This document shows, in pieces, positions 35,896 to 39,643 of a stretch of 64,000 nucleotides of DNA. The DNA is from Escherichia coli (GTDB taxonomy: Bacteria; Pseudomonadota; Gammaproteobacteria; Enterobacterales; Enterobacteriaceae). Made by a program: the position numbers and the translations under genes. The stretch lies in assembly GCF_030013205.1 (NCBI RefSeq), contig NZ_CP122648.1. One strand, 5' to 3'. Every line of letters starts with the position of its first letter. Position 1 is the first letter of the stretch. Below the pieces are notes generated by a model. That model was given only the letters and a program-made list of their open reading frames with translations, was not told the origin of the DNA and did no database searches.

Positions 35896-37437
<1,542 letters not shown>

Positions 37438-37599
37438 AAAAGTTTGATGCTCAAAGAATTAAACTTCGTAATGAATTACGTGTTCACTCTTGAGACTTGG
37501 TATTCATTTTTCGTCTTGCGACGTTAAGAATCCGTATCTTCGAGTGCCCACACAGATTGTCTGATAAATTGTTAAAGAGCAGTTGCGACGCGGCTTTCA

Positions 37600-37770
37600 G
37601 CTCACTGTCGCGAGGTGGCGTATATTACGCTTTCCTCTTTCAGAGTCAACCCTGAATTTCAGGATTTTTCTCTTCAACCGAACCGGCTGTTTGTGTGAAG
37701 TGATTCACATCCGCCGTGTCGATGGAGGCGCATTATAGGGAGTTCTCCGCAGGCCGCAATAGAAAAATTG
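37600..37770 (-). promoter_or_regulatory. rrn tandem promoters P1 and P2
   Basis: P2 TTGACT-N17-TAATAT (minus strand, around 37612-37639); P1 TTGCGG-N16-TATAAT (around 37732-37759) with GC-rich discriminator. Confidence 0.7.
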
Positions 37771-37932
37771 CAGAAAAATGACTGACTGCTGCATTCCCCA
37801 GCAAAACCCCGCTTTATACCTTTTTACGCACAGAGTTATCCACAATCATCAATGTAATTTCTGTATTTTTCCCACGGTAACCACTGTCAAAATTGTGATC
37901 ACCATTGAAAGAGAAAAATTCGCGAGCGTTGC

Positions 37933-37946
37933 GCAAACGTTTTCGT
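37933..37946 (+). promoter_or_regulatory. PurR operator (PUR box) for purHD
   Basis: GCAAACGTTTTCGT matches the PurR consensus, about 110 bp upstream of purH. Confidence 0.6.
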
Positions 37947-38053
37947 TACAATGCGGGCGAAAAATAAGGATGCCCCGTTAGGGGCGTTAGCTGAGTTTTT
38001 CGCGAAAAATTCAGCTAACGCTCTCTGTAATAGTCAAATCCAGGGGATTTACC

Positions 38054-39643
38054 ATGCAACAACGTCGTCCAGTCCGCCGCGCTCTGCTCAGTGTTTCTGA
38101 CAAAGCCGGTATCGTCGAATTCGCCCAGGCACTTTCCGCACGCGGTGTGGAGCTGCTGTCTACAGGGGGCACTGCCCGTCTGTTAGCAGAAAAAGGTCTG
38201 CCGGTAACCGAAGTTTCCGATTACACCGGTTTCCCGGAGATGATGGATGGACGCGTGAAGACCCTGCATCCGAAAGTACATGGTGGCATTCTGGGTCGTC
38301 GCGGCCAGGACGATGCCATTATGGAAGAACATCAGATCCAGCCTATCGATATGGTGGTTGTTAACCTGTATCCGTTCGCCCAGACCGTTGCCCGTGAAGG
38401 TTGCTCGCTGGAAGATGCGGTTGAGAACATCGATATCGGCGGCCCAACGATGGTGCGCTCTGCCGCCAAGAACCATAAAGATGTCGCAATCGTGGTGAAG
38501 AGCAGCGACTACGACGCCATTATTAAAGAGATAGATGCCAATGAAGGCTCCCTGACTCTGGAAACTCGCTTTGACCTTGCCATTAAAGCCTTCGAACACA
38601 CCGCCGCCTACGACAGCATGATTGCCAACTACTTCGGCAGCATGGTTCCGGCTTACCACGGTGAAAGCAAAGAAGCCGCCGGTCGCTTCCCACGCACGCT
38701 GAACCTGAACTTCATTAAGAAGCAGGATATGCGTTACGGCGAGAACAGCCACCAGCAGGCTGCCTTCTATATAGAAGAGAATGTGAAAGAAGCCTCCGTT
38801 GCTACCGCAACCCAGGTTCAGGGTAAAGCCCTCTCTTATAACAACATCGCCGATACCGATGCGGCGCTGGAGTGCGTGAAAGAGTTCGCCGAGCCGGCAT
38901 GTGTGATTGTGAAGCACGCCAACCCTTGCGGCGTGGCTATCGGCAATTCCATTCTTGATGCTTACGATCGCGCGTACAAAACCGACCCGACCTCCGCATT
39001 CGGCGGCATTATCGCCTTTAACCGCGAGCTGGATGCGGAAACCGCGCAGGCCATCATTTCTCGTCAGTTTGTTGAAGTGATTATTGCGCCGTCCGCCAGC
39101 GAAGAAGCTCTGAAAATCACCGCCGCCAAACAGAACGTACGCGTCCTGACCTGCGGTCAGTGGGGCGAGCGTGTTCCGGGTCTTGATTTCAAACGTGTTA
39201 ACGGCGGTCTGCTGGTTCAGGATCGCGATCTGGGCATGGTCGGTGCAGAAGAACTGCGCGTCGTCACCAAACGTCAGCCGACCGAACAGGAACTGCGTGA
39301 TGCGCTGTTCTGCTGGAAAGTGGCGAAGTTCGTGAAATCCAACGCCATTGTCTATGCCAAAAACAATATGACCATCGGTATTGGCGCGGGCCAGATGAGC
39401 CGCGTGTACTCCGCAAAAATCGCCGGTATTAAAGCGGCCGATGAAGGCCTGGAAGTGAAAGGTTCCTCGATGGCTTCTGACGCGTTCTTCCCGTTCCGCG
39501 ACGGTATTGATGCCGCCGCCGCTGCGGGCGTGACCTGCGTAATCCAGCCTGGCGGTTCTATCCGTGATGACGAAGTGATTGCCGCCGCCGACGAGCACGG
39601 TATTGCGATGCTCTTCACCGACATGCGCCATTTCCGCCATTAA
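38054..39643 (+). CDS. purH: Bifunctional AICAR transformylase / IMP cyclohydrolase
   Basis: 529-aa [30 protein letters not shown]... Confidence 0.95.

Follow-up and report, generated by a model that had tools for sequence, protein, structure and literature searches.

The 38-bp palindrome that directly precedes purH in Escherichia coli is real, non-random and evolutionarily maintained, and on balance we read it as probably the DNA image of a selected RNA stem-loop, here termed P2, in the leader of the purHD mRNA, where it would likely act in cis and post-transcriptionally. Within the window, that is, the whole 64,000-nucleotide stretch of DNA that was analysed, the sequence GCGTTAGCTGAGTTTTTCGCGAAAAATTCAGCTAACGC lies exactly where a preliminary description had placed a near-perfect palindrome. 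An inverted-repeat search returned it as two 19-nt arms with 95% complementarity and a 0-nt spacer. It is the best inverted repeat of the whole 64-kb window, the runners-up being only 76–88% complementary, and the expected number of such palindromes by chance in 64 kb is about 1.4e-5. The first account of it, 11-bp exact arms around a nearly palindromic 16-bp centre, is correct and is better put as a 17-bp stem closed by a CGCG loop. The sole non-complementary position, G37995/T38010, becomes a G·U pair in plus-strand RNA. Folded as plus-strand RNA, the palindrome yields a stable P2 stem-loop of 17 continuous pairs and the CGCG loop (−22.5 kcal/mol, z = −6.6), and the minus-strand fold carries an A·C mismatch at the odd position (−18.6 kcal/mol). 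The coordinates of P2 and its neighbouring features are collected in Table 1.

The region matches the sequence upstream of purH in 5418 of 5426 complete E. coli genomes with an identity of 99% or more in 5101 records. Given these matches, the 16S rRNA found by Rfam scan on the minus strand up to 37437, and the start of purH at 38054, the region is the divergent rrnE/purHD intergenic region. In strain MG1655, purH occupies 4205943–4207532 and rrsE begins at 4208147, with no annotation in between; the palindrome corresponds to 4207565–4207602. As first described, it lies between the PurR box and the purH start, the box spanning 37931–37946 where 37933–46 had been given. The sequence ACGAAAACGTTTGCGC has been listed as the purH–purD PurR site (Cho et al, 2011; PMC3159470). 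In enterobacterial purH loci, which were gathered through the PurH protein alone and without reference to the −10 hexamer or the hairpin, the block of PurR box and TACAAT is invariant, together with an upstream A-tract and TTCGCGAGC.

Table 1. Features of the purH leader and promoter in the window.
Feature	Position	Strand	Basis
PurR operator of the purHD promoter, GCGCAAACGTTTTCGT	37931–37946	+	sequence; conserved in all Enterobacterales loci
−10 hexamer TACAAT of purHp	37947–37952	+	follows the PurR box without a gap in all enterobacterial purH loci collected
P1, GC-rich hairpin GCCCC-GUUA-GGGGC	37972–37985	+	sequence; P1 and P2 in tandem are the MFE structure of 37972–38027
P2 RNA stem-loop, 38 nt	37984–38021	+	inverted-repeat search, folding, covariation, RNAalifold
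P2 5' arm	37984–38000		
P2 loop CGCG	38001–38004		
P2 3' arm	38005–38021		
P2 wobble pair G37995·U38010	37995, 38010		
Pyrimidine tract UCUCUG, directly 3' of P2	38022–38027	+	column counts; predicted P2 extension
Shine-Dalgarno AGGGGA (38042–38047) in hairpin AAAUCC-AGG-GGAUUU	38036–38050	+	folding, RNAalifold
purH CDS, 529 aa	38054–39643	+	ORF list; RefSeq annotation of matching E. coli records

The position and invariance of the PurR-box/−10 block would, by promoter geometry, place the purHD transcription start at about 37959–37960. Primer-extension papers on purHD from 1989–90 reportedly provide a second basis for this placement. The start-site supplements of Kim 2012 contain no purH entry and no coordinates matching the leader, and a paper on Y. 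pestis PurR gives no mapping of the purH leader. The palindrome lies 32–69 nt downstream of TACAAT and 32 nt upstream of the purH ATG. Because it is downstream of both the PurR operator and the −10 hexamer, it should fall inside the purHD 5' UTR, at about +26 to +63 of a leader of ~95 nt if the start site is placed as above.

Several other features of the intergenic region were observed. The A-tract with TTCGCGAGC (GAGAAAAATTCGCGAGC; 37911–37927) immediately precedes the PurR box, is a conserved feature among Enterobacterales and may be a UP-element-like part of a promoter with a poor −35; the 9-mer GAAAAATTC from this block reappears in the 3' half of the palindrome at 38004–38012. At 37836–37844, with the rrnE upstream region on one side and the purH promoter on the other, is a perfect consensus DnaA box, TTATCCACA. 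Almost every Enterobacterales purH locus that was inspected retains it (one of them as TTACCCACA), and it sits in a longer conserved block containing GCATTCCACAGCAAAACCC, TTTATACC and ACACAGAGTTATCCACA. Between P2 and the Shine-Dalgarno sequence, TGTAATAGT at 38026–38034 resembles by eye an extended −10 (TGn followed by AATAGT). This lookalike is restricted to Escherichia/Citrobacter-type leaders and was not flagged by a promoter scan; if active as a promoter, it would give a short purH leader without the hairpin.

To follow the element beyond E. coli we assembled two sets of leaders, neither of which used the hairpin for selection: 80 species-level purH loci found through the protein, and 120 metagenomic stretches found through the promoter pattern GCAAACGTTTTCGYTACAAT. 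Combined, these gave 100 distinct purH leaders. A common architecture was present in 86 of the 100 distinct Enterobacterales leaders and reads, in order, as P1, an abutting 5' arm GCGUUA(G/C)NUGA(R).., a variable apex, a 3' arm ..UNANSUAACGC, and UCU. The conserved base of P2 thus consists of GCGUUA.. and ..UAACGC, and its apex differs completely between lineages, in its sequence as in its length, which gives total hairpin lengths of 35–88 nt. Among the 100 leaders, the element was absent from Rosenbergiella-type, Photorhabdus and a few other leaders, and three Mangrovibacter leaders (L008, L086 and L197) appear by eye to carry diverged versions of it. The sequence motif itself occurred in 10 of the 80 species-level loci, all ten from Enterobacterales: Escherichia, Pseudocitrobacter, Citrobacter, Enterobacter, Superficieibacter, a Klebsiella sp., Ca. 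Pantoea persica and Yersinia. The element is therefore not a peculiarity of one strain; its conservation spans Enterobacteriaceae and reaches Erwiniaceae and Yersiniaceae. Among 5419 E. coli genomes, 5330 have a leader of at least 99% identity. In one divergent E. coli strain (98.0% identity) the P2 loop and the single-stranded 5' part hold one SNP each, and in E. albertii a C-to-U change produces a U·G pair; in these two cases, variation at this level spares the P2 stem.

One metagenomic contig (L166) keeps P1 and P2 and carries an insertion of ~125 nt after P2 and ahead of the Shine-Dalgarno sequence, which gives a leader of ~250 nt. The insert holds a second palindrome (..CTTATCCCGCCTTATGTTTCTATATAAGACGGGATAACGCG..) and is possibly a small inserted element.

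For 57 distinct arm pairs, selection on base pairing was assessed in an alignment of each arm's outer 18 positions; the conserved ends served as anchor, and the register was counted from the base. Standard pairs filled 85.7% of cells, vs 24–39% when the 3' partner was slid by 1–3 columns. Ten stem pairs were changed on both sides. Double-changed cells numbered 112, vs 48 ± 7 in shuffles, and 0 of 500 shuffles reached 112; since the sequences are related, these shuffle statistics overstate significance and are not probabilities. The covariation score was 0.29, compared with 0.14 in shuffles and at most 0.10 in slid alignments. Base-pair swaps were found at stem positions 7 (G-C 25, C-G 29), 12 (A-U 27, G·U 19, G-C 11), 13 (U-A 35, G-C 18) and 14 (U-A 23, C-G 13, U·G 11). 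For example, GUUAG/CUAAC is replaced by GUUAC/GUAAC, and E. coli GCUGAG/UUCAGC by Klebsiella-type GGUGAG/CUCACC, with the Citrobacter type as a half-changed intermediate. At positions 8 and 10, about half of the leaders have a mismatch. RNAalifold applied to 24 natural, unanchored leaders recovered P2, a two-pair extension and the small Shine-Dalgarno hairpin.

The same alignment contains 52 G·U cells vs 17 A·C cells. Since an excess of G·U over A·C would be expected from folding of the purH-sense RNA and of no other strand, this assigns the structure to the purH transcript. Base pairing is thus kept by compensatory substitution with a strand-specific wobble pattern. An RNA hairpin in the purH 5' UTR had been among the readings proposed at the outset, and it is the one that the position after the PurR box and −10, the covariation, the sense-strand wobbles and the variable apex support. 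Arm positions 1–6, 9 and 11 are nearly invariant, a sequence conservation beyond the needs of pairing that hints at an additional reader, whether a protein, a nuclease or an alternative pairing.

The two readings at the level of DNA that had been offered alongside the hairpin fare less well. The first is a protein-binding site, with the arms as half-sites of a dimeric protein acting at the purH promoter or as a roadblock, the candidates being an unknown factor, RbsR or PhoP. We regard it as improbable, even though the E. coli dyad is perfect and the arm sequence is conserved beyond pairing need. The distance between the arms varies widely among genera (element of 35–88 nt), which is incompatible with a fixed dimer, and the arm changes are compensatory rather than symmetric; the 52 vs 17 wobble asymmetry moreover makes the dyad imperfect in a strand-specific way. 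A shared dyad symmetry within the pur promoter region invites comparison with PurR/LacI-family operators, and the palindrome differs from these in length (38 bp vs 16 bp), in its genus-variable arm spacing and in the polarity of its centre. An operator of this type (a dyad of ~16 bp with a central CG and half-site AAAC-G) was accordingly rejected: the centre TTTTTCG-CGAAAAA has the reversed polarity and the spacing is not fixed. The true PurR box lies 38 bp upstream of the palindrome. The RbsR operator resembles the PurR box rather than the palindrome. The naming of RbsR and PhoP as purHD regulators besides PurR in a published table (PMC10100675) had been a point in favour of an operator; neither of them explains the palindrome, and a literature search on PhoP together with purH found nothing useful.

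The second DNA-level reading invokes the structure of the DNA itself, as a cruciform or supercoil sink, a bidirectional terminator or an insulator shielding the purH and rrnE promoters from each other. A perfect palindrome with an AT-rich centre beside a highly transcribed divergent rRNA operon would suit such a role, and P1 on the minus strand followed by ATCCTTATTTTT scans as terminator-like. The core promoter of rrnE P1, located by eye at ~37719–37750 of the minus strand, is however ~260 bp away, and because the element is downstream of purHp, outside the space between the promoters and probably within the transcribed purH leader, the earlier suggestion of an insulator between divergent rrn and pur promoters is unsupported. 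Cruciform extrusion sits poorly with the large non-palindromic apices of other genera, no plus-strand U-run follows P2, Klebsiella-, Pantoea- and Serratia-type leaders lack the U-rich tail on the minus strand, and the wobble asymmetry favours sense-strand RNA. Taken together, we consider a DNA-structural role very unlikely.

On termination, the view that the palindrome is not a canonical terminator holds: the scan found none at P2, which is followed by UCUCUGUAAUAG on the plus strand and by P1 on the minus strand. The accompanying statement that neither strand has a U-run is right for P2 itself and wrong for the adjoining P1, which on the minus strand runs into ATCCTTATTTTT in a terminator-like arrangement. 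Specifically, P1 at 37972–37985 (GCCCCUAACGGGGC on the minus strand) and the adjacent 37960–37971 (AUCCUUAUUUUU) scan as a terminator facing the rrnE promoters, and the U-rich tail is present in Escherichia/Citrobacter-type leaders. A minus-strand intrinsic terminator at P1 was rejected because this tail is not conserved. An interspersed REP/BIME-like repeat was also rejected: the palindrome has one locus per E. coli genome, and its second BLAST place is its own reverse-strand self-match.

P2 does not stand alone in the leader. The smaller palindrome GCCCCGTTAGGGGC, which had been seen just before the large one, is confirmed at P1 and overlaps P2 by 2 nt. P1 occurs in nearly all of the 86 leaders as a stem of 4–6 bp with freely varying loops, and in a few leaders its stem is compensated (e.g. 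GCCUC/GAGGU and UCCCG/CGGGA). On the other side of P2, UCU is kept in 86 of 86 leaders, a count to be read with the anchor that selected these leaders, which included TCT. The Shine-Dalgarno hairpin is invariant in Escherichia/Citrobacter/Klebsiella-type leaders and absent from Pantoea/Serratia-type ones. Averaged over the 86 leaders, predicted pairing probabilities were 0.94 for the P2 core, 0.52 for the P2 extension and 0.36 for P1. P1 and the P2 extension are predicted to be nearly iso-energetic, and they are predicted to compete: GGGG at 37981–37984 pairs either with CCCC in P1 or with UCUC at 38022–38025 in the P2 extension. When the E. coli leader is folded in isolation, the freed CCCC pairs with the GGGG of the Shine-Dalgarno sequence, a pairing that is lost once coding sequence is added. 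For a switch built on these four tracts (CCCC, GGGG, UCUC and Shine-Dalgarno GGGG), base-pair probabilities across the leaders gave no consistent Shine-Dalgarno pairing and no covariation, the latter because the tracts are invariant, and the switch is broken in some lineages (L005, Klebsiella-type). Being without covariation, broken in some lineages and gone with added coding sequence, the modelled switch is treated here as speculation.

Three further observations concern the sequences around P1 and P2. Two GGA motifs were seen by eye, AAGGAUG at 37967–37973, 5' of P1, and the Shine-Dalgarno CAGGGGA at 38041–38047 (AAGGGAU in other genera). Both resemble, again by eye, CsrA-type sites flanking hairpins, and Serratia-type leaders lack the first of them. 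A stretch with which an sRNA might pair, CUCUCUGUAAU, was also spotted by eye. An upstream mini-ORF (AUG at 37970, CCC CGU UAG) was rejected as a candidate, since the AUG is missing from many Pantoea-type leaders and neither frame nor stop is conserved.

At the level of RNA, a more specific proposal is that P2 is an RNase III processing site, at which cutting would remove the triphosphorylated 5' end together with P1 and so control purHD decay or translation. The helix is long, almost uninterrupted and at least 17 bp in every lineage, and RNase III is described as preferring intramolecular stems with well-paired central positions (Altuvia 2018). Equally long and unrelated hairpins are found in purH leaders of Vibrionaceae and other gammaproteobacteria, which suggests selection for duplex length as such. 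These other hairpins are an observation in their own right: very long and unrelated to P2, they were noted in five loci (L028, L020, L016, L013 and L017) from Photobacterium, Aliivibrio, Vibrio and Oceanisphaera-like gammaproteobacteria, ~60–150 nt upstream of purH, and include a ~22-bp helix in L028 and GGUUUGGUAAA...UUUACCAAACC common to L013 and L017. Rfam has no family for them. With respect to its length, P2 is at the lower end for an RNase III substrate: relative to about two helical turns, its duplex has 17 uninterrupted bp, or 21 bp if the G·U-rich GGGG:UCUC extension is counted, and in other genera the stem is longer but interrupted. In the tables of Gordon et al (2017) that were accessible, no RNase III site falls at the palindrome; the sole cleavage site between purH and rrsE (4207874) is on the rrnE side and not within 4207565–4207602. 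The accessible supplements of Adams et al (2021) list no 3' end in the purH leader and do not mention purH. RNase III processing at P2 is a possible but rather unlikely specification of the leader hairpin.

An alternative is that the P1–P2 module senses something, i.e. that a bound metabolite or specific protein makes it switch purH expression, as an enterobacterial counterpart of the ZTP riboswitch. The ZTP riboswitch is an RNA regulator of purH in many other bacteria. A covarying leader structure before a gene that in other phyla is preceded by a riboswitch fits this idea, as do the absence of any known RNA family accounting for P1–P2, the nearly iso-energetic alternatives formed by P1 and the P2 extension, and the semi-conserved internal stem positions 8–10. 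However, the module consists of just two simple hairpins without a multi-helix junction, its loops and apex are free to vary, its conserved nucleotides lie in helices rather than in loops or junctions, and the switch lacks covariation. The ZTP riboswitch (pfl motif, RF01750) shares with P1–P2 the niche of the purH leader and nothing of its build, as P1–P2 has neither the pseudoknotted two-domain architecture nor conserved loops. An Rfam scan of 36000–39000 at E ≤ 1 returned only 16S rRNA and a sub-threshold Ysr197, and nothing overlapping 37950–38060; in 20 other gammaproteobacterial purH loci, Rfam found nothing above the gathering score and no ZTP riboswitch. P1–P2 is absent from Rfam. The Ysr197 match (RF02849; 37559–37792, minus strand) scores 118 bits against a gathering threshold of 167, with E = 5e-29, and, judging from its span across the promoter and leader of rrnE, what this 'Yersinia sRNA' model depicts seems to be an rrn leader. 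All in all, ligand or protein sensing by the module seems to us improbable. Hardly more credence is given to its fuller form, in which P1, P2 and UCU are an uncatalogued, Enterobacterales-specific RNA that switches purHD translation or stability on a signal such as a ZMP-like purine/folate intermediate or an RNA-binding protein.

The neighbouring rRNA operon raises one more reading, namely that CGCUCU.., directly behind the hairpin, serves as a boxA and the hairpin itself is boxB-like, an arrangement also present in the rrn leader. The rrn/lambda boxB–boxA leaders and the purH leader share a hairpin followed by a GCUCU-containing tract, here beside an rRNA operon, and the Pantoea-type CGCUCUUA equals the lambda boxA core. 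The boxA consensus is GYUCUUUAANA, and the suhB boxA is inactivated by a C4T/T6C double mutation (Baniulyte et al, 2017; PMC5725501). The Serratia-type GCUCUUUAUAU has two mismatches to this consensus. Yet 0 of the 86 leaders match it, and critical positions differ in E. coli, where GCUCUCUGUAA has three mismatches, including a C at position 6. Half of the motif (its first bases) is also buried in the P2 stem, and the true boxA sequences of rrnE, at 37580 and 35660, are picked up by the same test. A boxA/Nus site was therefore rejected, and we give this reading almost no credence.

What remains is that the element is probably an ordinary cis-acting mRNA leader structure. E. coli 5'-UTR stem-loops that control mRNA decay include the ompA-type 5' stabiliser and the RNase III-cleaved leaders of rnc and pnp. 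Like these, P2 is a stable UTR hairpin without a terminator tail whose structure, and not its apex sequence, is conserved, and its action in cis is putative. P2 differs in that it starts ~26 nt from the likely 5' end with a second hairpin before it, and in that, at the base of its stem, both the sequence and the pairing are conserved. Dyad symmetries in the purHD leader are said to have been described by Aiba and Mizobuchi in 1989 and by Flannigan and colleagues in 1990, without comparative or functional analysis; the latter reportedly noted two regions of dyad symmetry in the mRNA leader, with one hairpin interfering with the other. These are almost certainly P1 and P2. Because this reported description matches them, the hairpin structure itself is old knowledge. 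Our literature search found no paper joining purHD with 'dyad symmetry' and no later functional or comparative treatment of the leader. New here are the evolutionary conservation, the strand assignment, the taxonomic range and the exclusion of the DNA-level readings.

The following sequence of events would be consistent with these results. The purHD leader would be transcribed from the PurR-repressed promoter just upstream, and P1, P2 and the UCU tract would form a two-hairpin module held by selection on base pairing across Enterobacterales. In cis and post-transcriptionally, the module may affect the lifetime of the purHD mRNA, its translation, or both. Long leader duplexes are used in E. coli for cleavage by the double-strand-specific RNase III and for protection from 5'-end-dependent RNase E. 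The long rigid duplex of P2 could accordingly be an RNase III substrate or a barrier to 5'-end-dependent RNase E attack. Competition between the base of P2 and P1 for GGGG may change which C/U-rich tract can pair with the Shine-Dalgarno GGGG. What selection acts on would be a long and stable duplex whose place in the leader is fixed and whose base is strongly conserved.

If P2 is only a stability hairpin, the finding is an ordinary one; if the signal-switch reading were true, P1–P2–UCU would fill the role that the ZTP riboswitch has in other bacteria. As a single-copy, 38-nt and easily mutable element with natural compensatory variants, P2 offers a test case for long leader duplexes. The purHD operon is a textbook PurR-repressed operon, and a leader structure kept by compensatory substitution in several enterobacterial families implies a second layer, either post-transcriptional control or protection of the mRNA.
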